In this document: positions 595 through 57,100 of the stretch, piece after piece
Numbering within the stretch: position 1 is the stretch's first letter
How the letters are laid out: each line of letters begins with the position of its first letter
Source: Patescibacteria group bacterium
GTDB lineage: Bacteria; Patescibacteriota; Patescibacteriia; JAQUQO01
Direction: 5' to 3'
NCBI GenBank assembly: GCA_028716045.1
Contig: JAQUQO010000001.1
Coordinates: 320,942-384,941, forward strand
Length of the DNA: 64,000 nucleotides
Notes under the pieces: model-generated
The model's input: the letters and a program-made list of their open reading frames with translations, nothing else
What the model was told of the DNA's origin: nothing
Databases searched by the model: none
Program-made: the position numbers and the translations under genes

Positions 595-2475
595 ATGATT
601 GCCGAAATTATACCGGCAATAAAATTGCCGAGAAATTTTACCTACTTTGACTATTTGGTTCCCGAGGAGCTGAAGAGTAGTCTGCGCGTGGGGCAGATAG
701 TTCAAATACCTTTCCGTGGCCAAAAAATTGAAGGGCTGGTTTATAATATAAAAAAAGGCAGTGAATCAAAATTTAAAAAATTGAAAGCCATAATAAAAAT
801 ACCTATCAACCCGCCGGTTTTTGATAGAGAGGATATTGAGCTAATAAAATGGCTGGCTAATTATTATTTCATTTCTTGGGGGCTGTCCGCCAAACAATTT
901 ATCCCCGATTTTCCCAAAAGAAAATCCCAGTCCCAAGAAATAATCACTTCTAATCTTTCAATTAATTTTGAGGTCAAGCCACGGCCAAGGGGATTGGGTT
1001 ATTTTCAATATAAAAATCAGGACGAAAAACACTCTTTTTATTTAGACACGGTTCGAAAAAATCAGGGGCAAAATAGGCAAACATTGTTTTTATCGCCAAC
1101 TATCAGTGGGGCGATAGAATTGAATAATTTTTTTATTCAGCATTTTAAAGGACAAACATCTCTGTTATTAAATAATTTATCAAAAGGTTCTTTTTATACC
1201 GAGTGGCTCAATATCTTAAATAACAAAAAAAGTATCATTATTGGAACTCGCAGCGCTATCTTTTCTCCCTTGAAAAATATTGGGGCGATTGTTTTGGACG
1301 AAGAATTCAGTGATGATTTTAAACAAGAAGAGCCAAACCCGCGTTACGACGCTCGCAGTTTGGCTATACAAATAAACAAACTTAAAAATATTTCGGTTAT
1401 TTTTTCCAGTCCCCTACCCCGGCTGGAAATGTACCCACAAATAAAATCCGGTAAGATAAAAATTTTAAGCAGTACGGAAATAAAATATGACAATTTAAAA
1501 ATCATAGATTTAAACGAAGAAATTCGAGCCGGTAATTATTCGTTACTAAGCGATTTCCTGGAGGAAAAAATTGCCGGTGTTTTAAAAAATAAAAAACAGA
1601 CACTACTATTTTTAAATCGCCGCGGTGGCGCCACGTACATTTATTGCGGTGATTGTTCCTATGTTTTTTCATGCGGAGAATGCCAATTACCCTTGGCAGA
1701 GTACGGAAAAATTCTACGTTGCCGGCATTGTAATAAAGAGTTTCCTTTTCCGCTTGCCTGCCCCGCCTGTTCCGGGACTAATCTAAAATTTTCCGGCAAA
1801 GGCACACAAAAAGTAGAATTTTTTATAAAAAATAAATTTCCCGACGCGATTTCTTTAAGATTGGATGCTGATGTTGATAAAAAGGATTTAGATCAAAAAA
1901 TACTCGCCAAGGCCGATATTATTATTGGCACAAACTTTATTTGGCAACGTTTAGATTGGAGTAAAATCGGGCTTGTCGGTGTGCTTAATTTTGATAATTT
2001 TATAAACCATCAAGATTTCAGGACCAGAGAAAAGCAAGGCCATTTTTTAGCCAATTTAAAAACGCATTTTGATGGGCCACTTGTTATCCAGACACACTCC
2101 CTGGATAATCCAGTTTTTCAATATTTAAAGAATGGAGATTGGCAGGAATTTTTTAACAAAGAGCTGGAAATTAGGAACTCTTTTTCTTATCCCCCATATT
2201 CGCATCTGATTAAACTTATTTATCAAGATAGTAATGATAAAAAAGCCGAAAGAGAGTCAGCGAAAATTTATAAACTATTAGCAAGTAAAATCAAAGGATT
2301 AGCTGGAGTAGAATTAATTCCCCCGATCCAGTATTATGGTTTAAAAATACGCGGAAAATATCGCTGGAATTTAGTGCTTAAAGTCCGCCAGGATTCTTGG
2401 AATAAAATTTATGAAATTTTGAAAGTCGTGCCGGCAAACTGGTTAATTGATATAGACCCGAGTAATCTTCTTTAG
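595..2475 (+). CDS. priA: primosomal protein N' (PriA) homolog with degenerate helicase motifs
   Basis: N-terminal 3'BD-like region; IIIGTRSAIFSPLKNIGAIVLDEEFSDDFKQEEPNPRYDARSLA aligns to the PriA motif II region; Cys-rich zinc-binding segment CGDCSYVFSCGECQ...CRHCN...CPACSG; C-terminal domain. No GxGKT Walker A motif is present. Confidence 0.85.
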   Translation: MIAEIIPAIKLPRNFTYFDYLVPEELKSSLRVGQIVQIPFRGQKIEGLVYNIKKGSESKFKKLKAIIKIPINPPVFDREDIELIKWLANYYFISWGLSAKQFIPDFPKRKSQSQEIITSNLSINFEVKPRPRGLGYFQYKNQDEKHSFYLDTVRKNQGQNRQTLFLSPTISGAIELNNFFIQHFKGQTSLLLNNLSKGSFYTEWLNILNNKKSIIIGTRSAIFSPLKNIGAIVLDEEFSDDFKQEEPNPRYDARSLAIQINKLKNISVIFSSPLPRLEMYPQIKSGKIKILSSTEIKYDNLKIIDLNEEIRAGNYSLLSDFLEEKIAGVLKNKKQTLLFLNRRGGATYIYCGDCSYVFSCGECQLPLAEYGKILRCRHCNKEFPFPLACPACSGTNLKFSGKGTQKVEFFIKNKFPDAISLRLDADVDKKDLDQKILAKADIIIGTNFIWQRLDWSKIGLVGVLNFDNFINHQDFRTREKQGHFLANLKTHFDGPLVIQTHSLDNPVFQYLKNGDWQEFFNKELEIRNSFSYPPYSHLIKLIYQDSNDKKAERESAKIYKLLASKIKGLAGVELIPPIQYYGLKIRGKYRWNLVLKVRQDSWNKIYEILKVVPANWLIDIDPSNLL

Positions 2476-2506: not shown

Positions 2507-2526
2507 GTTTGGTCAATATAAAATAT

Positions 2527-2985
2527 ATGGCTAAAAAATTGCCCATAGAAAAGGGTGAAAAAAATAAAATATTGCGCAGAAAGTCGGTGGAGTTAGCCAC
2601 CGAAAAAATTACCTCTTCAGAAATCAAGGAGTTGATTGGCGATATAATAAAGACGATGAAAGAAGAAAAAGGTGTTGGTTTAGCTGCTCCACAAATCGGA
2701 GAAAATATCCGTTTGTTTTGTGTTGATACCAAAGAAAAACCTTTGATTTTTATTAACCCTCGTATAACAAAAAAATCTCTCGGGAAAGAAATAGCCGACG
2801 AGGGATGTTTGTCATTGCCAGGAGTATGGGGTCCAGTAAAGAGAAGTAAAAGCGTAGAAGTGTCTTTTTATAACGAGCAGGGTATAAAAATAAAAATTAA
2901 AGCGAGCGGTCTGCTTGCCCGGGTGATTCAACATGAGTATGACCATTTAGACGGTATTTTATTTATTGACAGATTGAAAAAATAA
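2527..2985 (+). CDS. def: peptide deformylase
   Basis: Motifs GVGLAAPQIG, EGCLSLPG and QHEYDHLDG. Start moved to ATG 2527 (MAKKLPIEKG...) because the upstream TTG overlaps the -10 box. Confidence 0.93.
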   Translation: MAKKLPIEKGEKNKILRRKSVELATEKITSSEIKELIGDIIKTMKEEKGVGLAAPQIGENIRLFCVDTKEKPLIFINPRITKKSLGKEIADEGCLSLPGVWGPVKRSKSVEVSFYNEQGIKIKIKASGLLARVIQHEYDHLDGILFIDRLKK

Positions 2986-3016: not shown

Positions 3017-3091
3017 CTCTGCCGGGTTGGAGTTGTCTCTTTTGGACAATCGGTTAAATAATATAATATTAAATATTTTTTGTCAATATTA

Positions 3092-4039
3092 ATGTTCAAA
3101 AATAGTAAAAGAGTAATTTTTATGGGCACTTCCGAATTCGCAGTGCCTATTTTAGAAAAACTGATAAAAAATTATCAGATTATTGGCGTATTTACCCAGT
3201 CGGATAAACCACTTGGAAGAAATAAAGAATTGGCAAAATCCCCCGTTAAAGAATTGGCTTTGAAAAATAATCTAACTATTTTCCAACCGCAAAATTTGAA
3301 AGAACAGAATGCGTTAAACCAGATAAAAGAATTAAGCCCCGATTTAATCGTAGTGGTGGCTTATGGGAAAATTATCCCTCAAAATATTATAAAAATTCCT
3401 AAATATGGCGTGATTAATATCCACGGCTCTCTTTTGCCAGAATATCGAGGCGCCTCCCCTATTCAAACAGCAATATTGAATGGTGGGGAAAAAACAGGAG
3501 TAACTATAATGCTTATTGATGAAAAAATGGACCACGGCCCAGTATTGGCAAAGCAGGAATTAGGAATCACGAATAACGACACAACGGAAACGCTTAGCAA
3601 AAAATTGTCTGTTTTAGGAGCTGATTTACTTATTAAGATTTTACCCGATTATTTGTCGGGGAAAATGAAACCTACAGAACAAAATCACGAGCAGGCAACT
3701 TTTACAAAAATAACTACTCGCGAAGATGGCCAAATTGATTGGTTTAAATCAGCCGAAGAAATAGAGCGGCAATGGCGCGCTTTTACTCCCTGGCCGGGAA
3801 TTTTTACTTTTTGGGACGGGAAACGATTAAAATTAAACGCTATTAGGATTTTAAATACGGATAATAACCCGGCGCAAGATATTGGAAAAGTTTTCTTAAT
3901 CGATGACGATAACATGGGGATTTATTGCGGCAAAGGAAGTTTGATTTTAGAAAAACTACAACTTGAAGGCAAAAAGGAATTAACCGGACAAGAATTCAGG
4001 CGAGGATATAAAAATATAATTGGTGCGGAATTAGGATAA
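3092..4039 (+). CDS. fmt: methionyl-tRNA formyltransferase
   Basis: IFMGTSEFAVP and NIHGSLLPEYRGASPIQTAILNGGEKTGVTIM, plus a C-terminal domain. An alternative TTG start lies at 3080. Confidence 0.93.
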   Translation: MFKNSKRVIFMGTSEFAVPILEKLIKNYQIIGVFTQSDKPLGRNKELAKSPVKELALKNNLTIFQPQNLKEQNALNQIKELSPDLIVVVAYGKIIPQNIIKIPKYGVINIHGSLLPEYRGASPIQTAILNGGEKTGVTIMLIDEKMDHGPVLAKQELGITNNDTTETLSKKLSVLGADLLIKILPDYLSGKMKPTEQNHEQATFTKITTREDGQIDWFKSAEEIERQWRAFTPWPGIFTFWDGKRLKLNAIRILNTDNNPAQDIGKVFLIDDDNMGIYCGKGSLILEKLQLEGKKELTGQEFRRGYKNIIGAELG

Positions 4040-4118: not shown

Positions 4119-6311
4119 CTATGCCTCGGGGCTATATCCTCGCTGAGTGAGGATAAAACGTAGGTGACGACGGACAGAGGGGACAGTGAGATAAAGCTGA
4201 TTAAACTGGGTAGCGTTTATTTTATAAACAGTCACCCTGCTAATCGCTTTAATTGTGGCGGTTCTTTCTTTCTGTAGCTCAAGAGCTACAATTTCGCCCA
4301 CAATATCTCGCGGGCCAAGAACCGCAATCTGCTCCCCTCCTTTTTCCACACTTACTTCGCCCTCAAAGATGACATAACAATCCTTTGAAGTTGTCCCTTC
4401 GTTGATGATAATCATTCCCTCGGGAAAGACCATTTTTTCAGCGAAAGAACTGATTTTCGCGAGCAGTTGAGCTGAAACCTCAGCGAAAATTTTCACCCGA
4501 CGGAGAAAATCTCTTGTTTTCCACATAGTCTGAAGAGCTGAGATTGTTTCGGGATTATGACTTATAAACTCAGTAAAAATTTCTCCGGGAATAGAGAATA
4601 TTTTCACTGGCGAAACGGCTCTAACGGTTGCATTTCGCGGTTTTCGTTGGACAAAAGCCATTTCCCCAAAAATATCCCCGGCTTGCAGTAGGGCAATTTT
4701 CTTTTGAGAAGAATTGGAGCCGACCAATACTTCAAATATGCCACTTAAAACCACATAGACATTGTCCGCTTTACTTCCCTCTTCTATTACTACTGTTCCA
4801 GTCGGTTTATTTTGGATTGTTCCGCTTTGTAGAAAAGCAGAAAGCCAGGATCGGTCAACCCCGAGTTGATTAAGAGCATCTTGGATGCTTATTACATCAA
4901 ATAGGTCGCTGTTACCTGGTACCAGATTAAAATGCTGGGTAGGTCGGAGAAGATGATTTTTGATTTCAGGGGGAAGCTTAGAAGAGTTACTGTGGGTTAA
5001 GAAAATCTTTTCTCTCACTTCCGGGTTACTTTCGATGTAAGAAGCGAAGTCTACGGGTTTCCCATGAAGGGGCGCCCCGCCGGCGTCATAAACGGCCATT
5101 ACTATGTCCTCCCGTTTAGTGGCATTGAGTATTTCCAAGAGGCGATCTCGGCGATTATCCGAAATAACCCCCTTTTGGTGAAGCTCCTCTATGCCGGTCC
5201 AGGAAAGATTATCTCCGCCGATAAGAAGACTTTTCTTTTCTCCGTTACTATCCACTATTGAAAAAGTGAAGCCGATAGTAGGAATACTATGCGCGTTGTA
5301 ATGAGCGGTAATACAACCGCCAGGGATTTTTACCGGTTTAGTCGGAGTAAGGAGGACAAAGTCAAAGTACCCCCTTACCTCGTTTTCGTCGATATCCCAG
5401 ATAGCCGAGATTTTCAGACAGAGTGAGCCGAAAATTTCCGGAGTAGTAATCACTTTTAGCTTTTTGTCCTTGCGGTGAATTGATGATGCGGCCCAGTGGT
5501 CGTCATGGACATGAGTCGGACAGACGGCTTCTATCTGAAGTAAGCTCAATCCCATTCTTTCTACCACTTCGGCTACGTACGGCATAGAATCAATAAGATA
5601 GAAAAGTCCCCTCGCTCCAGCTATAAGACCGCTGCAAGCGTTCTCGGGGTCAAAACCGTTTGACGCACTTAGCACCTCTAAGCCGAGACTTGACGGCTCA
5701 ACAGCTTTGTAGAAAACTGGCAAGGGAAACGGAGGAATTTGTTCTCCTTCAAAATTGAGATTAATAACATCGAGGTCGTTGACCAAAAAGATGTTTTTGT
5801 CGAGTTTAGCGATTTTAACACCTCTAGCCCCTTCTTGAATTACCACTTCTCCCAACTCGTTAAAATAGTGAAAATCCACTAAATCACGAATTTGGAGAAT
5901 TTTACCATCTCTTTTGAGGGCAAAGTGGTCCATTTCGCGGCGGAGCATCTCTGCTACTCCCTTAGAAGTTCCCCAACGTTTCATCTCTTCGTCAGTCGGT
6001 CCTAAAAGAGTAATACGTAAAATCGTCTCAATCTGTTGGCACTGTTTTTTTGTGCCGACGATTATCAATTTTTCTCCTCTAGAAAATCCGCCGGAATTGA
6101 AAAGATGATAATAGAGAATAAATTCAAAGGAGAATTGAGAGTTGCCGCCGACATAAGGGACGGAGGGGGCAACGACAATTCTCACCCTAGGAGAATCGGG
6201 TGTTTGCAATATTTTTTTTACCACCTCGGGTGGCGCGCCAAACAGCACTCCTCCTATTTCCGTTTTAACCAAATAACACCCTTCACAAAGTTTTATTGTT
6301 TGCTCGTTCAT
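4119..6311 (-). CDS. multidomain protein: N-terminal unknown region, metallo-beta-lactamase-fold hydrolase core, and two C-terminal cyclic-nucleotide-binding (CAP-family) domains
   Basis: MBL motif THVHDDHW, with downstream His/Asp residues HYNAHS and DAGGAPLHG. Two cNMP-binding signatures: GDIFGEMAF...RNATVRA and VGEIVALE...RTATIKA. Strong SD AGGAGG lies 7 nt upstream of the ATG. Confidence 0.8.
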   Translation of the reverse strand: MNEQTIKLCEGCYLVKTEIGGVLFGAPPEVVKKILQTPDSPRVRIVVAPSVPYVGGNSQFSFEFILYYHLFNSGGFSRGEKLIIVGTKKQCQQIETILRITLLGPTDEEMKRWGTSKGVAEMLRREMDHFALKRDGKILQIRDLVDFHYFNELGEVVIQEGARGVKIAKLDKNIFLVNDLDVINLNFEGEQIPPFPLPVFYKAVEPSSLGLEVLSASNGFDPENACSGLIAGARGLFYLIDSMPYVAEVVERMGLSLLQIEAVCPTHVHDDHWAASSIHRKDKKLKVITTPEIFGSLCLKISAIWDIDENEVRGYFDFVLLTPTKPVKIPGGCITAHYNAHSIPTIGFTFSIVDSNGEKKSLLIGGDNLSWTGIEELHQKGVISDNRRDRLLEILNATKREDIVMAVYDAGGAPLHGKPVDFASYIESNPEVREKIFLTHSNSSKLPPEIKNHLLRPTQHFNLVPGNSDLFDVISIQDALNQLGVDRSWLSAFLQSGTIQNKPTGTVVIEEGSKADNVYVVLSGIFEVLVGSNSSQKKIALLQAGDIFGEMAFVQRKPRNATVRAVSPVKIFSIPGEIFTEFISHNPETISALQTMWKTRDFLRRVKIFAEVSAQLLAKISSFAEKMVFPEGMIIINEGTTSKDCYVIFEGEVSVEKGGEQIAVLGPRDIVGEIVALELQKERTATIKAISRVTVYKINATQFNQLYLTVPSVRRHLRFILTQRGYSPEA

Positions 6312-25228: not shown

Positions 25229-26863
25229 TTATTGTTCACGCCGGTGACGCAGAGAATTCAGCGAAATTTCCTCTGCGTTATCATCAACTTTTAATATCGG
25301 CTCCACTTTGTAGGTTTTTTGGGCCGGTAAGGGTTTTTTGTCTTCGCGTTCCAAAGACGCCAGTTGTTCCCTTAATAATTGAGTTTTATCCCGCCGACTT
25401 CTGGCTTTAGCTAAACATTCCCGGCAATAAACCGGACGCACGCCGTCGGGCTTGAAATTTACCATTATCTCCGCCCCACATTCGGCACATTTTGCTGGAT
25501 ATTGGACAATGTCTTTTTTCTCTATTCTTCCGCCCTCTCCTCCTTCGCCCTCCTTTTCTCTTCTGATATTTTCTTTCGCTTCTTCACTAATACTCCAACG
25601 CATAATTTTTTCTTCCACTACCGACCGCGGTTTGGTATAACGTTCTCTGGAAACTTTAATAATCTTTTCCCTATTCTCCTGGCGCTTGGCAATCGGCGGC
25701 AAGGTGGTGGCGGAAAAAGGCATGGTAGCCACGCCGTCAACCATCAGTTTTAGATAAACATCGTATTTTGTCAGGTTAACCAAATCCTGTTCGGTGAATT
25801 GTGGAGCGAACTCTTTTTCCAAGACCTCGGCATCGGCGGCGCCGACGCGAAAACAGACCAGCGTGCCGACGTTGCCAAAAACCGCGGCCTGAACCTTTTC
25901 ATCAAGCTGTTCAATATACTGATGACCGACTATTAAATTCAAATGATATTTGCGGGCTTCCGACAGAACATTGGCGAAAGATTCGGTGGAAAAATTCTGG
26001 AACTCGTCAATATAAAGATAAAAATCCGGCCGGTCCTCTTCCGGCATATCAATTCTTTCCATGGCCGCCAACTGAATTTTGGTAATCATCATCGCGCCGA
26101 GCAAAGAAGAATTATCCTCACCCATTCTGCCCTTGGAAACATTCAAAATTAAAATTTTCCGGTTATCCATAATATCGCGGATGTCAATGGTGGATTTCAC
26201 CTGGCCGACGACATTGCGAATCAAAGGGCTAGATAAAAACTGCCCGACCTTATTTTGAATCGGAGAAATAACTTCCTGTAAAACCCTTTCATTCCATTTG
26301 GAATACTCATCAACCCAAAAAGACCTGACCACGGGGTCGGTAATATTATTGATGACTTTTTTGCGGAAAGATTTGTCGGTTAAAATTCTCATTACGCCGA
26401 GCAAAGTGCTTCCCGGATAATCCAGCAATGCCAAAATGGCATTTCTCAAAATATACTCCAAGCGTGGTCCCCAGGAATCAGCCCAAATCTTTTTGAAAAT
26501 TCCGATAAGCCCCGAAGCGATTAAATGCTGTTGGGCCACGTCAACTTTCTCCAAAACATTAAAAGCAATCGGATATTCCATATCCGCCGGATTGAAATAA
26601 ATCACATCGTTTATCCTGGTGGGCGGAATAAAATCCAAAATTTTTTCGGCCATATCACCATGCGGGTCAACAACCGCCACGCCTTGGCCACTCATTATGT
26701 CCTGCACCACCATATTTTCAATTAAAGTCGTTTTGCCCATGCCGGTTTTACCAATTACATACATATGCCGTCGGCGGTCGTCGGTTCTTATGCCAAATCT
26801 GACCTTTTTATTGCGAAAATTAGTTGTGGCAAAAAAATTTATCTTTTCGGCCATATTATTCAA
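25229..26863 (-). CDS. TraD/VirD4 (T4CP)-like FtsK-HerA superfamily P-loop ATPase, lacking a TM domain, with a C-terminal CxxC-N17-CxxC zinc ribbon
   Basis: Walker A VIGKTGMGKTT; VVDPHGD (cf. DPKGD of TrwB/TraD); Walker B FYLYIDEFQNF; RKYHLNLIVGHQYIEQL; C-terminus CAECGAEIMVNFKPDGVRPVYCRECL. The start overlaps the upstream gene's stop by 8 nt. Confidence 0.7.
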   Translation of the reverse strand: MNNMAEKINFFATTNFRNKKVRFGIRTDDRRRHMYVIGKTGMGKTTLIENMVVQDIMSGQGVAVVDPHGDMAEKILDFIPPTRINDVIYFNPADMEYPIAFNVLEKVDVAQQHLIASGLIGIFKKIWADSWGPRLEYILRNAILALLDYPGSTLLGVMRILTDKSFRKKVINNITDPVVRSFWVDEYSKWNERVLQEVISPIQNKVGQFLSSPLIRNVVGQVKSTIDIRDIMDNRKILILNVSKGRMGEDNSSLLGAMMITKIQLAAMERIDMPEEDRPDFYLYIDEFQNFSTESFANVLSEARKYHLNLIVGHQYIEQLDEKVQAAVFGNVGTLVCFRVGAADAEVLEKEFAPQFTEQDLVNLTKYDVYLKLMVDGVATMPFSATTLPPIAKRQENREKIIKVSRERYTKPRSVVEEKIMRWSISEEAKENIRREKEGEGGEGGRIEKKDIVQYPAKCAECGAEIMVNFKPDGVRPVYCRECLAKARSRRDKTQLLREQLASLEREDKKPLPAQKTYKVEPILKVDDNAEEISLNSLRHRREQ

Positions 26864-48195: not shown

Positions 48196-51100
48196 TTAAT
48201 AAAATCCCGTATCTATATCATCCATAATATCCTTGCCTTTTTCTCCCGAATCTACTTTCGGTTCTTGCTGAGCATCTTTAATCTCTGCTGGAGCCGGGGG
48301 AATTTCTTTTTTTATTTCTGGACTCGCTGCCGGTCTTGATAGTGGAACTTCCGGGGCTGGCGGGGCTGAAATCCCCATTCCTTCTGTTGATTTCTCTAAG
48401 GGCATATCCAGGGTAATCGCGCCGGCTTTTTCTTTGGCTAAATCAATCGGTGAAGATTTATATGATTTGTAATCCTCTCTTTCGGAAGTAAGATAATAAA
48501 CGTTCGGGCCAACCAAGAACCCGTATCGGCCGGCGGAATCAGTAACTTGAGCCGCTAGTAATTTATTGAATTGAATATCAAAAATGCGAACCACGGCTTT
48601 GCCCAAAGGTTTTTTCGTCCCCTTATCATAAACAATACCCCAACCCTTTGGTTTTGAAGGATAAGCCAAGCGGCGGAACAAGAAATAAAGCATAAAATGA
48701 AGCGCCACCAAAATTCCCATCAGTAGTTTAGGCACAATGGCAAAGGTGACAATTGACAAGCCCAATCCGGAAAGCGAAATGCCATTTTGCACCCGACGAC
48801 CGACGGCCAAAGCTAAAATCTTTCTGTTCGGCTTGTCTTCTTTCACCGGGTCAAGCGGGATATTGGCGGTAATAACAGCTCCGCTTGCTTCTACTTTTAT
48901 GTTTTCCCCGTGGTATAAATCAAGGAACGCCATATCCTCTTTTTTCTCTCCCAACAATGACGTGGGATATTTAAATTCCACTTTTTTCACCTCTATCCGA
49001 TAAGTCCCCGCTTCTTTAATTATCAGATTATAACGCCCTTGTTTGTCGGTAATTTGCGTCTGAACTAAAGTTCCGTTTTGGACATTAATCAAGCGGACAA
49101 TAGCCAAATCAATCGGCTCCTTGGAAATAGAATTATACACCGTCCCCCAGCCCTTCCTCTTGCGACGCGATAATAATCTAAAAGGTTCGGTGAAAATAAA
49201 CTGTAAATAAGGAATGAGATACACAAAAGAGATAGCCGTGGAAGCATTAACCGCCACCACCGCCACTAAAGTCGGGGCGACGTAATTTTGAGCGGCTTTT
49301 TCCACCTGCGGGTCATCAGCCAGCTCTCCCACGGTATTAACTATAACTTCAACTGTTCCCACAAGGGAATTGAGGAAATCCGCAACCGGTGATTCCACTA
49401 TGTCCTCTTCGTTATTGTCATCAATACTCAAACACCCCGCGTCAGCCGGATAATCCGTCTGACCATCTCCATCATTATCCGCCCCGTCAAAACAAGCAGG
49501 GAGAGAAACGGTGAATTCTTCTACGTTGGAGATTATTTTGTATTCCTTGGCTATCTCATCATAAACTCTGACGTAAGATTTATGCGCTCCCGGAGGCAAA
49601 GAAATTTTTATATTTTCCGCCCATTCCTCGTTCTGCGGCGTAAATTCATACTTGTAAATCTCGCTCTCCACGACTAATTCATATGTTTTGCCAATTTCGG
49701 CATTATGCATAATAACGGTAATGCCAGCATCCATTAATTTGCTTTCCGCGGACACTTTGCCTTGCCGCACCTCACTAAGTTTAACTCCCTCCAAGCGAGC
49801 GGCTATTTCTTTGATATTTATTTCACCAATAGTCACTCTTATTATCGTATCTCTTATTTTCTCGCCGATTTCTTCTTCCTGCTCCTCTTTTATTTCTTCC
49901 GCTGTTTTCTCTGTTACTTTAAACTCAAACAAAGAAGAATAAACTTCTCCCACTTTCACTCTTAAAGTATGCGCCCCAAATAATAATTCATCCGTTAAAG
50001 TATAGCTGAAAAAACCTTCGCTGTTAGCTTTCGTGCTGTCCAGATATTCTCCGTCCAAATAAATATCCACTGCGCCGTTGCTGACATAAGCGTTACCCCT
50101 GATAGTCGGCGCTGTGTCAGTAATTTCGGAATTGTCCCCGGGATATGTGATAACCGGTGGTTTTTGTTCTGCTTTTTTATATAATCCAAAATACGCCGAA
50201 CCCTTGCCGCCGCGTTCCAAATCCACGGTTACCATTTCCGAAGTAGTCAGAGTGTATCCGGAAGGCAAAACCAGAGAATATTTCCCTTTTTCTATCTTTC
50301 CGATTTTAACAAAATGTTTTCCCGCTCTTCTGCCATCCACCGTAGAATGCCCCCCTGCCACGGAACTCACGGAATACACATTAACTTCTGTTTCCTGCGG
50401 ACCACTCAAAGCCCCGTCTCCATTCAAATCATAATAAACGAGCGTTCTGATTCCTTGCACACCCTTCTCGCCCTTGTCATATTGGCCATTATTGTTGCCG
50501 TCAAAAAAAGTAAAAATATCAATGGCGCCGGCGCTGACCGGATTTAAAAGGGTGTTGGAGGTAGCAGATTTATTTTCTCCGTTTTGCGTATATTCGGCTT
50601 TAGCCACATTAGAAATAGTATGGGGCACACTTTGCTTTACCTCATCAGGCGAAACTTTAAAGGGTAATGTCAGATAACCTGACTGACCGGCTTTTACTTC
50701 TCCCAAATTAAATATTATTTCGCAAGAGCTGGTCTCCTCTTCCCCTGCACATTTTAGAAAATCTTCCAACCGGCCAACCGACTCGCTATTTTTCTTCAAA
50801 TAACCGTCGTCAAAAATAACTGAATCTATTTTATCTTTTATAACTACGTTTTTCAGATCGTCTTTCGTTTGATTGATATAATCAATCTGATAAACAATAC
50901 TGTCTTCCGGCTGCACTGCCACGCCATTGCCGGCGTAATTTTCCACTTTTATTGAAGCATCATTTAATCCGGCCATGGTAGCCATCATCGCCACTTTCAC
51001 TATTCCCAAAACAACTGCCATTGCTAAAGTGGAATAGGCCTTTCTCTCAAATCTTATTCTCACCATGGAACGCGCGGCTCGATTCCACAAAACCAGATGA

Positions 51101-54100
51101 TAGCTTAAAATAACCAAAGAAATCAAAATAAAAAAAGACATCACCGCTGAAAAATTTCTAAGATACTTTAGATTCTCCAGCGGCTGGATTTTTGTTCCGA
51201 TATTTAAAGAGGAGCTTAAAACCGCGGAGCCCTTCACTTCTCCCTGCCCCGGTTCCTTAATGACCGCTGTTTTAATAAGCGTGAAAGACGGGGGCAAGGT
51301 TTTGGCCGTGAGCGCTTCTGACCAGGGCGTGTCAACTCCTCCGCCATTTCGTCCCCTGGCGCGAATAGTATAAGAAGTGTCGGGTTTTAAATTGCCAAAG
51401 GTAAAACTATTTTGTCCGGCGGCGAATTCCGAAGCCAGCGGTGTTCCGTCTTCCGGAATTCTATCTCCCTCGTAGATTTCAAAAGTCACTCCCGCTTGCT
51501 CCCAATCCGTCCCGACCGGGAAAGAATAATTATCCACGCTCGCCCATAAAGAAGTAGTGAGCGCCGCCTGCAAGGTCGGCTTAGACGGCGGTTCAGCTAA
51601 AGTCCAAACAGCGGGACAAACCGCGCAATCTCCCGAATAAGCATTGGTTATTTTATTTTTTACGCAAACCTTGCGGCCATCAAGTTTAGTATTATATTTT
51701 AATCCTTCCTTCGAACTCTCCTCGTAAAAGCCAAAATATTCCTGCGTAAAATACGCATAAACAGTGGACTCCTTCGCCGGAATCCAGGACTTTAAATACT
51801 GGTCGGTATTGTAAACAGCCGTCAAATATCCGGACCAAGGAGTGGTGTACCCGGAAGAAACCACATCCACCATTTTGTCAGAGGTCACAAAAGGAACAAA
51901 TTCCAGATTATCCCTGTCGGATTCGTTCAAAAAATCAATGGGAAAATCCACCACCCAAATAATAGCATGCCCTTCTCTGCCCCCATAAGAACTGGCGTCA
52001 AATCCTCCGAAGCCGCGGCAATTGGTCGCGTTAACCATAAACCCGGCCGCGATATCTTCGGCATAATTTAAAGTGACATTATAAATTATGGGCGTATCCG
52101 TATCCGGCGTTAATACGGCCTTCCATCTCAAATCGCTTCCGCTGGTGGCAAAAACGTATTCCACCCCATTCGTCACCGCCACCCAAGTGGTCCCGCCATC
52201 ATTGCTTAAATAATAGGCAATAGTGGAAGCGCCCGGCAGATAATGTTCGGCCGTTAAGGTGGCTCTTAAGATATTTCTCCCAGGATTGGCCATGGCAACG
52301 GATTGAGCGATATAAGTGCCGGCGGTTTGAGTTAATTGCGGAGTGAAAATAAAGGAATCGCCCGAAGAATAAGCGACCAGCAGTTCTTTCATGGAGTCGC
52401 GATTAATGTCATGGGCGAAAACCGCGGAGGAAGGTGCGGCGCTTAATAATTCCACGGTAAAATCGCCCCGACCGTCGTTCCGGTAAATATATGTTCCTGC
52501 GGCGCCACCAACTAAATATAAATCAACATCTCCGTCATTATCCAAATCATCGCCCCGGAAAATTCCCGTCGTGCCCAATGACTGTTTAGTAAATGAGCCT
52601 TGGCCATTATTCCAATAGATGGCGGAGTTTATATCGGAATTAGAAACGACGACGTCTTTCCAGCTATCGCCGTTTAAATCGGCGGAAACTATATTATCTG
52701 TGCTGCCTTCTCCGAATTGGCTTTCCCGTATAAATGTTCCGCTGCCATTATTCCTGTATAAAAAATTCTGCTGGCTTACTCTATCACCCACCAAAATATC
52801 CACGTCTCCGTCATTATCTATGTCATCCGTGTATCCCTGAAGCGTGTTCTCCCACGCCAAACCCAAATCTTCCTGAATAAAAGTTGAACCATCGCCGTTG
52901 TTTCTAAAAATAAAATTCTGGCCGTTTTCAAAAATAATAATATCCTGGTCGCCATCCCCTTCCACGTCCGCCGGCCAAAGCTGTCTTTCATTACCAATAC
53001 TTACTATTTGGGTTATAGTGCTGAAATTGCCCGCGCCGTCATTGAAATAAACGCAATCCCAGCCGTTATCAGCCCCCACTAAAATATCCAGATACCCGTC
53101 GCCGTTAAAATCAGCCGCGCCATCAATATCATTATTGGCGCAAGAAACATTGGTAAAGGGAGCGGTGGCCGTAAATCCCCCACCACCATCGCCCAGATAG
53201 ATTTTACTGCTGGTGGCGGCATCGGCTCCGGACAGCACCGCCAAATCTTCATAACCATCATAATTCACATCCCCCAAAGGCATTATTTTTGAAGTCTGCG
53301 CGGGGAAATTGGCTCCGCCGTAAAGTTGCGCCCAACCGCCATCGGCGTCATTATTATGAAGATTATTTTCATAAATATAATTTTGGTCATCGGCATCGGC
53401 GCAAGTTCCGCCGATACAAGAAAAATAATGAATGATATCCTCATCGCCGTCTTTATCTATATCCGCAGCCGCCAAGTTATCCGCCTTATCAACATTAGCT
53501 GACCCACTGGCGAAATATCCGGTTTCTTCCGTAAAAGTCCCGCTGCCCTTATTGCGCAACAGGCCGTTGATGCCCACGCCGCTCGCTATGACCGCCAAAT
53601 CCATATCACCGTCCAAATCGGCGTCAACGTCAATCATTTTGGCGTAATTAAAACTAAAAGCGGCATTGGCCGTAAAAGTTCCTTGCCCGTTATTTTGATA
53701 TAAAAATAAACTCGCGCCATTTGAAGCAATGATGTCCTCATCTCCGTCATTATCAAAATCATTAACCACCAAACTATCGTTGCCGCTACCGGCCGCATAA
53801 GCCAAAGTGCTCGCCAAAGTAAAGGCGCCCGTCCCATCATTAGTATAAATTTTCGCGCCAACGCCGTTATCGCAAACAATGACGTCCATGTCTCCGTCAA
53901 CGTCAACGTCAACGGCTTTAATGGTCCGAGTGTCGCCAGCGTTGAAAGTGTCACTGGAAGTGAACGTGCCATCACCGTCATTGAGCCAGAGTTTATCCTG
54001 CGCGGCGGTTCCTTCCAAGATATCAACATCGCCGTCCTTATTAACATCGGCCGCGTCCAAAGATTGGGTATTGCTGGCACCAAATCCCGAGTATTCGCTG

Positions 54101-57100
54101 GCCGCGCCAAAAGTTCCGCTGCCATTATTCAAATAATAATAATTTTGACCATTGTTGCCTTGAATAATATCCTTATCACCATCCTCGTCTAAATCCACGG
54201 CTAAAAGCGTATTGGTATTTCTGCTCGTGCCGCCGTCGGGAAAAGGAGTTGATTCTGTAAAAGTTCCGCTGCCATTGTTCTTGTATAAATACATTGGGTT
54301 GCCATAATTGCCCGCTACAATATCCTGATCTCCATCAGTATCAATATCAACGGACAGAATAAAGGAGGTGTCATTGGCCGCGGCCGCCGGACTTAAAGCG
54401 GCGCTGCCGACAGCGAAAGTATTGGTCGCTGGCGCCCGAATCACCTCTCCGACAGCGCTCCATTCGGTCGTAGTGGTGGCGCTATCGCGCCAAACTGTGG
54501 TGTCAAAAGTATCAGTAATGCTTCCCCTGATGGCGGTAAAAGAAAAAGTGGCGCTATAAGCTGTGCCGCCGTTTTCATCAACGCCCGCCACCCTCCAATA
54601 ATAAGTCGTCTTGGGGGTTAAAGTATATTTCGCGGGTAAGGTGAAAGAAGCCGTATCTCCGGAATTATAAAAATTGACCTGCGACCATCCCAGAGAATCA
54701 TCTTTGACATACCAGATATTGTCTTCTTTTTGGTAAAAAGTTAAAACATCTTTGTTAAACGATGAATCCGCGGCGATTTCCAAAATATAATGCAGAGTAT
54801 CACTATCCGTATCCGTAGTGGAAAATTCAAAAGTGGGGTTTAAAGAAACTCCGGTCGCTCCGTCAGCCGGCGCGGTTAAAGAGGGTGTCCCGGGGTTGGT
54901 GTTGCCGTAAGTTATGGAAATATCAGAAATTGACGCCGAATAAGCGACATCCGTGGTGGCTAATATCGCCTTCCATCTTAAATCTGAACCAGTGGTTGTA
55001 AAAGTATGCGCTACTCCGGAAGTGGCCGCCTCCCAAGTTCTGCCGCCATTGTTGGATAAATAATAAGTGACAGAAGTGTTGGTCGGAGTAGTGGCCGTGG
55101 CTGTAAGAGTAGCCACATTTATATTTTCCACCGTGCTATCAACTATCTTGGATAGTATTGTGCTGTTATTATATTTATAAGAAAAGCTCTGCTCTAATTC
55201 GCCATAACCGCTCAAAAATATTTTTTTATCAACGTCATAATTAGGAGAGACAACTAAGGACTTATAATTAACGTCAGCCAGAGAGCTTCTGCTTTTCCAA
55301 ATTAAATCAATTGAAGTATCGTCGGTAAAAATAGTGTCCGAACTGTTGTGGGAAACTCCGCGCAAATCCAGATAACCATTATTATCCATATCGATAAGAC
55401 AGATGCTTGCGTCCGGACCGTAATCACTGGCTGGCTCGCCCGGGTCATAGGTGTAATCCGCGGTAGTGTTAAAAGTAGGGGCTCCATAATAGGCATAAAA
55501 CTTTCCGCGATGAAAAGTTTCTCCCGCTGACGCCCGATAATCCGGAGCCGCCACGACGACATCATCATAACCATCTTTATCTACATCGGCTGCTTCTACT
55601 AATTCGCCAAAATCGCTGCCGCTATCGTCAGCAGAATCATTGATAGTGCTATTGGCAGAAACGGTTGTCAGAGTGGATGCCAGTGAAGCGCTGCCGTTAA
55701 AAACATAAACACGCCCATCGCCGTCGCCAGCAGCACGAGAAGCTCCCACCACAATATCGTTATACCCATCGCCATTCACATCACCGGCAAGGGATAAATC
55801 TATGCCAAAAACATCACCAGCATCACCGGTTAAGGTGACGTCAGCCGTTGTATCAAAAGATTTTCCGCCGTAATAAATATAAACCCGCCCGGTATTAGCG
55901 CTGTAACTGGGCGCGCTAATCGCCAAATCATCAAACCCGTCGCCATTAACATCACCGGCACTCACCGCCGCTCCAAAAAGGTCGCCAGCCGCCGCGCCGG
56001 ACAAAGCATAATCATACACGTCATTAAAAAGTTTTCCCCCAAAATAAATCACCACTCCGCCCTGATTAGCTCCCTCTCCATTATTGTAGGTATATATACC
56101 TACAATAATATCTTTAAAACCATCGCCATTGATATCGGCAATAGTCACGCCATTATCACTGATTGTTTCAGCCGTAACATCCACATCGTCTAACGTATAA
56201 TCAACCACTGTATTAAACGTACTGCCGCCCAATAATACTTCAAGATTGGCGCCGTTTTTATCTAGCACATCCGCATAACCATCACCGTTAATATCGCCTC
56301 CGGCATAGATATTATTAAGCGTGTAATCTGCCGTGTTATCAATTCCGGCGGTGGCATTTAAAAATATACTCGTGGCATTAGCCAAATCCTCCAAACCGTC
56401 ACCGTTAATATCGCCCAAATTAACCCCTCTCTTTTGCTCCGCGTAAGAAGAGCCAAAAGCGCTGGGCATTAAATTCCAATTCTTAGCCGTGCCGCTATTA
56501 GAACTCACATATATTTGCGGAGTATCATTAAAACCTGCCCAAATACGTTTGTCACTGCCGCTATAATTATAATCTGGGGAAATGGCTATAGTCCGCAGGA
56601 TCTCTGTCATTCCTGTCGGCGTTATATCTGAAGCTCCCCCTTCAAAACGGTCCACTGTCATATATAAACTGACAGTGGTGTTGCTCCAAACCCAAGCCAC
56701 GCATTTTTCCGGATTGGCAACGCAATTAGCGGTTCCATCAAATTGCGGAGCTAATAACAAATGGTCCCAGCTCCCTCCGGGAATCACCGCCCAGCTAGTA
56801 CCACCATCTATTGTTACTAGACGGGCGCCGGTAGTGGTGGCAAGAACCTCGCTATCAGTTGCGAAGTTTGGGGATATTTTTATATCTGTCACTTCATTTA
56901 CCACATTTGTTCCCGCGTCAAAAGTGGCTCCGGAATCGATGGATTCGTAAATTTTACCGCCGGCCGTGCCTAAAAATAAATTTGCGGAATTTGCCGGGGA
57001 AATAGCAATGACAGTAATGCGATCATACGTTGTGCCAACGGGAGCACAGGAAATAGTGGAGGCCGTCTGGGCCCAAGTAGCACCGCCATCAGTGCTTTTA

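Follow-up and report, generated by a model that had tools for sequence, protein, structure and literature searches.

A PriA orthologue with an eroded ATPase site in a Patescibacteria genome, probably retained as a fork-recognition and helicase-loading scaffold

Introduction

The helicase activity of PriA was described in a 2017 review as conserved "except in Deinococcus" (PMC5778457). PriA of Deinococcus radiodurans, an organism that has no PriB or DnaT homologues, shows no ATPase or helicase activity and binds single-stranded DNA (ssDNA), fork DNA, and the cognate replicative helicase DnaB (PMC4504706; Lopper et al. 2015). Here we describe the priA gene of a 64,000-nucleotide stretch of DNA from a Patescibacteria group bacterium (GenBank assembly GCA_028716045.1, contig JAQUQO010000001.1, positions 320,942 to 384,941; hereafter the window), which an earlier note on this DNA had proposed to encode a naturally helicase-dead protein. 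As an orthologue of PriA in which motifs I and II are degenerate, its product bears the sequence signature of a pseudohelicase, and it has probably been retained as a scaffold for fork recognition and helicase loading.

The PriA proteins of Deinococcus-Thermus offer a natural parallel, since they too are orthologues with degenerate Walker A and B motifs and embody the same idea of a scaffold without a motor. They nevertheless differ from the window protein in the extent of the loss. The Deinococcus-Thermus proteins have poor motifs I and II, with a Lys-to-Arg change in a recognizable GKT context (PMC4504706), whereas the window form, which comes from another phylum, has lost the whole P-loop along with the Q motif, motifs III, V, and VI, and the winged helix.

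In Escherichia coli, the ATPase- and helicase-dead variants K230R and K230A still support primosome assembly, PriA-PriB restart, and DnaB loading. The K230R allele (priA300), cited in the earlier note as showing that primosome loading survives loss of helicase activity, is competent for restart both in vivo and in vitro (PMC5778457), and in a reconstituted assay K230A PriA is able to load DnaB (PMC10175261). These are single laboratory substitutions, made in a 732-aa enzyme that is intact in all other respects and has a winged helix; they require PriB and DnaT and do not work in the PriA-PriC pathway. The window protein, in contrast, is natural and multiply eroded, and its host is not expected to have PriB, PriC, or DnaT. 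Canonical PriA (TIGR00595; structures 4NL4, 6DGD, and 8FAK) shares its domain order, predicted fold, and gene neighborhood with the window protein, which however lacks the ATPase motifs and the winged helix and is ∼100 residues shorter. The E. coli construct 6DCR is likewise without the winged-helix domain, but it is engineered and its ATPase is intact. PriA of Mycobacterium tuberculosis is flagged in UniProt as being without detectable helicase domains. A literature search returned nothing linking PriA to Patescibacteria or the Candidate Phyla Radiation (CPR) in this respect. The pseudohelicase concept is already known from D. radiodurans; the Patescibacteria PriAs described here are a new, larger, and more eroded lineage.

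Results and Discussion

The open reading frame encodes a PriA orthologue

By its profile matches and its predicted fold, the open reading frame (ORF) at positions 595 to 2475 encodes a PriA orthologue. The equivalog model TIGR00595 scores the protein at 334.2 bits (cutoff 230.35), Pfam PriA_3primeBD (PF17764) matches residues 12-104 (4e-20), and PriA_C (PF18074) matches residues 534-622 (2e-10). PriA chains of E. coli and Klebsiella pneumoniae in the PDB match at E ∼1e-62 (phmmer). The sub-models of PRK05580, which are more specific than TIGR00595, all score the protein under their cutoffs. The domains follow the order of PriA: the 3′ DNA-binding domain (3′BD) comes first, then RecA-like lobe 1, then lobe 2, into which the eight-cysteine zinc region is inserted, and last the C-terminal domain.

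An AlphaFold2 model made from 30 relatives has a mean predicted local distance difference test score (pLDDT) of 88.7 and a predicted template modeling (TM) score of 0.88. Both RecA-like lobes are modeled with high confidence, and residues 112-129 form the sole poorly predicted stretch (pLDDT <50). The model matches PriA structures at E values down to 1.7e-49. Its best Foldseek match is 8fak_H, E. coli PriA in a complex with a fork and PriB (TM 0.85, root mean square deviation 4.5), followed by 6dcr, the winged-helix deletion of E. coli PriA (TM 0.72), and then by the apo and double-stranded DNA-bound structures of K. pneumoniae PriA (TM 0.71-0.73). Pfam, TIGR00595, the PDB matches, the fold, and the synteny described below thus agree with the earlier note in calling the protein PriA, and the landmarks that it had listed are all there: the 3′BD, the IIIGTRSAIFSP and PRYDARSLA blocks, and the eight cysteines.

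The canonical nucleotide site is eroded and the winged helix is missing

For comparison we used 265 collected PriA sequences (cluster representatives), among which 127 are without motifs I and VI (the degenerate group) and 135 have both (the canonical group). In the canonical group, G229, K230, T231, D320, E321, Q580, G583, and R584 (E. coli numbering) are each present in 100% of sequences and R587 in 99%. Since these positions are nearly invariant, the differences found at the motifs of the window protein lie outside normal drift.

At the site of motif I, aligned to E. coli GVTGSGKT 224-231, every P-loop glycine and Ser/Thr is gone and the acidic residues D143 and E144 occupy phosphate-loop positions, while K145 still stands at the position of the Walker lysine. 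The conclusion of the earlier note that Walker A is lost holds, but the P-loop had been placed ∼8 residues too far downstream: the site is at 1009-1032, and the span from 1033 to 1308, whose translation SFYLDTVRKNQGQ...IIIGTRSAIFSPLKNIGAIVLDEEF has DEEF as its last four residues, lies beyond it. The residues FYLDTVRKNQGQ correspond to E. coli EVYLSVLENVLAQ and form the helix on the downstream side of the P-loop. A cryptic P-loop elsewhere in the protein, which the note had named as a possible objection, was found neither by alignment nor by regular expressions: GxGK[ST], GK[ST], [AG]x4GK[ST], and GxxGxG have no match anywhere in the 626 residues. The Pfam DEAD match is below cutoff and begins only at profile position 37, and the TIGR00595 alignment begins at profile position 12, at query residue 147.

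The DExH box reads DEEF, as had been reported, both by translation of nucleotides 1297-1308 and by alignment to E. coli DEEH. The position of H323 in the degenerate group holds Glu in 36%, His in 21%, and Gln in 10% of sequences; Phe is found there only in the window's close relatives (P0001-P0004). The Q motif is absent from the window protein and its conservation is gone across the degenerate group. None of the patterns that mark an active superfamily 2 (SF2) enzyme (GxGK[ST], DExH/Q, SAT, and QxxGRxGR) is present in the window protein. As judged from these alignments, the canonical SF2 nucleotide site is destroyed in the Q motif, Walker A, the DExH histidine, and motifs III, V, and VI, a wider loss than that from which the earlier note had concluded that ATP cannot be hydrolyzed in the canonical way.

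The alignment also indicates that the winged-helix domain is deleted. Only 30 residues lie between E. coli positions 105 and 221 in the window protein, against a median of 37 in the degenerate group and 111 in the canonical group. This domain is not universal, and some motif-intact PriAs are also without it (minimum 40 residues).

Conservation is retained outside the nucleotide site

Conservation in the 135 canonical PriAs reaches 85% or more at 127 positions (E. coli numbering), of which the degenerate group keeps 70 and loses 57. Those kept in the 3′BD are Y18 (100%), G29, V32, P35, and G44. The RecA-like lobes keep motif Ib (G302, R304, A306, F308, and P310), D320 and E322, and motif IV (N426, R427, and G429), and the aromatic-rich loop keeps K328, Q329, the following Pro, and Y335. 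Also kept are the eight cysteines, G488 and G490 (GxGT), G538-T539 of motif V, D560, P566-D567-F568-R569, E572, and Q597-T598, together with F617, E621, R625, P631, P632, K700, D726, and P729 in the C-terminal domain. The losses, which fall in the motifs that contact the nucleotide, comprise Q203; G224-E232, which is motif I and the next residue (position 225 is outside the comparison); E254, T258, E321, H323, G355, A357, T358, R380, and R509; Q540, M541, K544, and G545; and Q580-R587, which is motif VI (positions 582 and 585 are outside the comparison).

Mean conservation follows the same division, although the two sets differ in phylogenetic depth and the contrast is semi-quantitative and indicative only: it is 0.47 in the degenerate group and 0.43 in the canonical group for the 3′BD, 0.42 and 0.40 for the C-terminal domain, and 0.51 and 0.58 for the zinc region, but 0.43 against 0.63 for RecA lobe 1 and 0.40 against 0.64 for lobe 2. 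The pattern is nevertheless clear: relaxation is limited to the nucleotide site, and the fork-binding, zinc-finger, and C-terminal parts are as conserved as in active PriAs.

The retained elements can be followed residue by residue. Equivalents of E. coli D17, Y18, and K61, the residues of the 3′-end pocket of the 3′BD (assigned from PMC5778457), are found in the degenerate group at 67%, 100%, and 91%, respectively, and the five motif Ib residues are kept at 76%-98%. An alignment of 30 relatives, with pairwise identities of only 28%-58%, has 23 invariant and 45 nearly invariant columns, all eight cysteines among them. Its invariant positions include G217 and P225 in motif Ib, K243 and P249 in the aromatic-rich loop (where conservation of Q244, R250, and Y251 is 90% or higher), N341 and G344 in motif IV, and R527, P533, and P534 in the C-terminal domain. 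The eight cysteines are invariant in this alignment and are present in 99%-100% of sequences in degenerate and canonical groups alike. One site in the zinc region is more conserved in the degenerate group than in the canonical one: D353, the equivalent of the PriB-docking residue D438 of E. coli, is Asp in 89% of degenerate and in 46% of canonical sequences.

The loss is shared across a large group of relatives

The identical 626-aa protein, with identical flanks, is found in GCA_028711565.1 (contig JAQTRY010000001.1, 812 kb), in two assemblies made from different SRA runs, and on a further contig of 927 kb. The closest non-identical relatives have 55%-58% protein identity. The closest homologues, of 610-650 aa, show the same loss, and those that are named belong to Patescibacteria, Buchananbacteria, Falkowbacteria, or Parcubacteria. 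The source of the window is a metagenome-assembled genome (MAG), and the motif state could in principle reflect an error of sequencing, assembly, or binning. We reject this reading, whose probability is close to negligible, because of the identical copies across the NCBI assembly, the two independent SRA-run assemblies, and the further long contig; the same motif state is moreover found in many other genomes. The other objection that the earlier note had named, an artefact not shared by relatives, therefore does not hold.

A profile of the degenerate clade was searched against 1.84 billion cluster representatives (50%-identity clusters), and more than 100 of the best 150 representatives taken are degenerate PriAs. 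The 127 members of the degenerate group are all full-length (606-711 aa), and a second homologue search with the clade profile, limited by its word index, added only three further degenerate sequences. Among GTDB species representatives, scanned with a narrower alignment as query and not including the window's genome, PriA is degenerate at every locus that carries a Falkow-, Uhr-, Buchanan-, or Parcubacteria label. Wherever PriA is of a type other than the short CPR one, the locus is intact. GxTGSGKT and DE[EC][HQ] are preserved in Chloroflexi, Omnitrophota, Geobacter, Syntrophomonas, and other loci, and QxxGRxGR is present in these motif-intact loci with one exception (L027).

A neighbor-joining tree from which the ATPase-motif columns had been removed places 109 degenerate sequences in one pure clade. 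Taken together, the alignments and the tree indicate that the degenerate motif state is common to a large, old radiation of Patescibacteria PriAs; the taxonomic breadth of this radiation rests on the named homologues and on representatives that mostly carry no organism names.

In the same tree, small degenerate groups sit outside the main clade among short motif-intact PriAs. They comprise P0243, P0172, P0199, P0140, P0148, and P0261; P0259, P0224, P0244, P0181, and P0033; and P0246 and P0072. These groups may reflect repeated loss of the ATPase or may be an artefact of the tree, and a distance tree cannot settle which.

Several MAGs labeled "uncultured Gammaproteobacteria" (L003, L006, L009, and L025) carry a short degenerate PriA, and so does one sequence labeled Candidatus Omnitrophica (protein P0287). 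The def and fmt genes of L003, L006, and L009 are ∼50% identical to those of the window. The gammaproteobacterial and Omnitrophica labels are probably wrong, or else the Omnitrophica case is a separate loss.

A probable scaffold for fork recognition and helicase loading

We consider it probable that the window PriA is a pseudohelicase retained as a fork-recognition and helicase-loading scaffold. The suggestion of the earlier note that only the scaffold function is kept gains support from the conservation pattern, and this appears to be a trait of a large lineage and not of one genome. Such a protein would bind abandoned forks and D-loops independently of ATP. Its aromatic-rich loop would wedge at the fork junction, as the loop of canonical PriA contacts or wedges into the junction (PMC5175346; PMC10175261), while the ssDNA of the lagging-strand template would be held by the zinc region, the C-terminal domain, and lobe 2; in the described fork complex these three parts form a pore around the lagging-strand ssDNA, and pivoting of the zinc region uncovers the surface on which PriB docks, D438 included (PMC10175261). 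The resulting ATP-independent platform would recruit the replicative helicase DnaB, either directly or via SSB or a loader. The protein would be unable to unwind a duplex lagging arm itself, and such forks would therefore have to occur seldom, remain untouched, or first be processed by a different enzyme.

Several points weigh against this proposal. The E. coli helicase-dead allele requires PriB, a protein that one would expect only in proteobacteria. For the window protein and its relatives alike, the loss of ATP binding is a reading of their sequences, and the unequal depth of the two comparison sets limits the conservation contrast. The position of the Walker lysine is fairly conserved in the degenerate group (Lys 58%, Arg 19%), as are the motif II Asp and Glu (76%-85%), although the conserved positions of K145, D235, and E237 may represent a structural salt bridge. 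E. coli PriA has been reported to have a second, weaker nucleotide site, whose location is unassigned (PMC5778457). Finally, no gene for DnaB, SSB, a loader, PriB, or DnaT lies in the 64-kb window; a Pfam scan of 41 ORFs of the window returned no DnaB, DnaC/DnaI, DciA, SSB, PriB, DnaT, RecG, or Rep/UvrD. A literature search for DciA or helicase loaders in CPR gave nothing relevant.

The most plausible of the alternatives, although still an unlikely one, is that the protein has been re-purposed and is no longer a restart factor: it could be a general or origin-dependent loader of DnaB, or a recombination factor that binds DNA structures. Patescibacteria genomes are reduced, the difference in D353 conservation hints at a lineage-specific partner, and mycobacterial PriA has been described as a primosome helicase loader in the absence of DnaC, DnaT, PriB, and PriC (PMC5694481). 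What speaks for a fork substrate is that the elements of fork specificity (the 3′-end pocket, the aromatic-rich loop, and the lobes that bind the lagging strand) are the best conserved, that the gene keeps its ancestral position next to def and fmt, and that nothing indicates another substrate. We give considerably less weight to the possibility that the protein is still a nucleotide-dependent motor, either through a non-canonical or second site or with catalytic residues that a partner or oligomerization provides in trans. The P-loop glycines are all replaced and two acidic residues stand in the phosphate loop; the Thr of motif I, the Q motif, motif III, the Gln, Lys, and Gly of motif V, and both arginines of the shortened motif VI are lost; and no alternative P-loop was found in the protein. 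The same positions vary freely across the 127 relatives, which argues against contact with a ligand. Such a motor could appeal to K145 at the Walker lysine position, to the remaining D235, E236, and E237, to the two confidently predicted RecA-like lobes, and to the second weak site proposed for the E. coli protein (PMC5778457).

That the gene is merely decaying, as a relic or pseudogene in a reduced genome, would fit the loss of many catalytic motifs and the lower conservation of the RecA lobes than in canonical PriAs, but we judge it highly improbable. Here and in 127 divergent representatives the ORF runs uninterrupted over its full length, the 30 aligned relatives retain their invariant and nearly invariant columns at 28%-58% identity, the 3′BD and C-terminal domain are conserved as in active PriAs, and the predicted fold is of high confidence.

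If the protein is indeed a pseudohelicase scaffold, the greater conservation of D353 suggests, from the alignments, a conserved docking partner on the zinc region. The AlphaFold2 model is nearer to the fork-bound "pore" conformer (8fak) than to the apo conformers. Because of this likeness, and because the PriB-docking surface is more conserved than in active PriAs, one might imagine a docking platform that is constitutively "switched on". We put forward only tentatively, and with less than even confidence, the broader idea that in much of the Patescibacteria PriA is a minimal ATP-independent fork sensor of this kind, whose docking partner would be SSB, DnaB, DciA, or an analogue of PriB, and in which the ATPase was perhaps lost repeatedly. 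Were this true, it would represent a minimal replication-restart system that shows the essential purpose of PriA.

The degenerate PriAs would also be natural evidence that the conserved core job of PriA is the structure-specific recognition of forks and the assembly of a platform, not unwinding. With 626 aa, the window protein offers a compact natural scaffold for structural and biochemical studies of how helicases are loaded in the absence of PriB and DnaT. For these genomes, automatic names such as "replication restart helicase" are suggested to be wrong.

Table 1. Positions of priA, its domains and motifs, and its downstream neighbors in the window
Feature	Position	Strand	Remarks
priA coding sequence, degenerate (pseudohelicase) form	595..2475	+	1,881-nt ORF including the stop codon; 626-aa product
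3′ DNA-binding domain, residues 1-104	595..906	+	PF17764; pocket F18-D19-Y20 and K64 for leading-strand 3′ end
Short linker, residues 105-133, replacing winged-helix domain	907..993	+	Predicted disordered
Former motif I (Walker A), YKNQDEKH, residues 139-146	1009..1032	+	Aligned to E. coli GVTGSGKT 224-231 (phmmer, MAFFT)
Motif Ib block GTRSAIFSP, DNA-binding part of lobe 1	1243..1269	+	Conserved
Motif II remnant DEEF, residues 235-238	1297..1308	+	E. coli DEEH
Aromatic-rich loop (motif IIa) KQEEPNPRY, fork-junction contact	1321..1347	+	Conserved; function from PMC5175346, PMC10175261
Motif III remnant SSPLP	1405..1419	+	E. coli GSATP
Motif IV LFLNRRG	1606..1626	+	Conserved relative to canonical PriAs
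Cys-rich region, four CxxC pairs, two predicted Zn sites	1645..1770	+	Includes D353
Motif V remnant IGTNFIWQR	1924..1950	+	E. coli IGTQMLAKG; G-T kept; Q, M, K, G lost
Motif VI remnant NLKTH	2053..2067	+	E. coli QVAGRAGR; shortened, without either arginine
PriA C-terminal domain, residues 513-626	2131..2472	+	PF18074
def (peptide deformylase)	2509..2985	+	PF01327 in gene call of L030; downstream neighbor
fmt (methionyl-tRNA formyltransferase)	3080..4039	+	PF00551, PF02911 in gene call of L030; downstream neighbor

Gene neighborhood

The order priA-def-fmt is found in the window, in 13 degenerate loci of the CPR type, and in canonical loci (Geobacter, Syntrophomonas, Omnitrophota, and others). 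Because this order is shared with canonical loci, the degenerate gene occupies the ancestral priA position. We considered whether it might instead be a paralogue and rejected this reading on the same synteny, which is readable in the window and in 10-kb flanks.

At 10 of the loci (L002-L007, L009, L011, L013, and L015), a gene of ∼180-200 aa lies on the opposite strand between priA and def. Its product has a conserved SGDSD[FY] motif that resembles an NYN/LabA-like domain; the gene is absent from the window.

Upstream of priA, positions 204-575 on the plus strand form an apparent separate transcription unit. A predicted promoter at 204-232 (TTGACA, a 17-nt spacing, and TG-TATAGT) matches the consensus at 11 of 12 positions. 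A segment with a G+C content of 47%, compared with 40% for the window, folds much more strongly than shuffled sequences (z = −4.8); an Rfam search of this structured region gave no family at gathering score. The unit contains a 42-codon ORF at 383-511 (MSLAKRTREFRG...) downstream of an AGGAGG site, and a hairpin followed by a U-run at ∼530-575, which ends 20 nt before the start codon of priA. Expression of priA may depend on read-through of this upstream terminator. The unit is identical in three assemblies, and BLAST did not find it in more distant relatives.

Other features of the window

Four further loci of the window lie on the minus strand. The largest is a 3,555-aa ORF at 48196-58863 that is rich in FG-GAP and FG-GAP_3 repeats, with fn3, CarboxypepD_reg, and BNR segments, and is likely a giant surface protein. 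At 25229-28268, a TrwB/VirD4-like coupling-protein ATPase of 544 aa, whose C terminus carries a treble-clef zinc finger, overlaps an ORF of 470 aa without a Pfam match; the pair may be a module for DNA transfer or DNA uptake. A 730-aa protein encoded at 4119-6311 ends in two cyclic-nucleotide-binding domains, preceded by ∼480 N-terminal residues with no Pfam match. At 29691-31727, SecD carries an inserted or fused peptidyl-prolyl isomerase domain of the PPIC type (Rotamase_3, residues 247-361).

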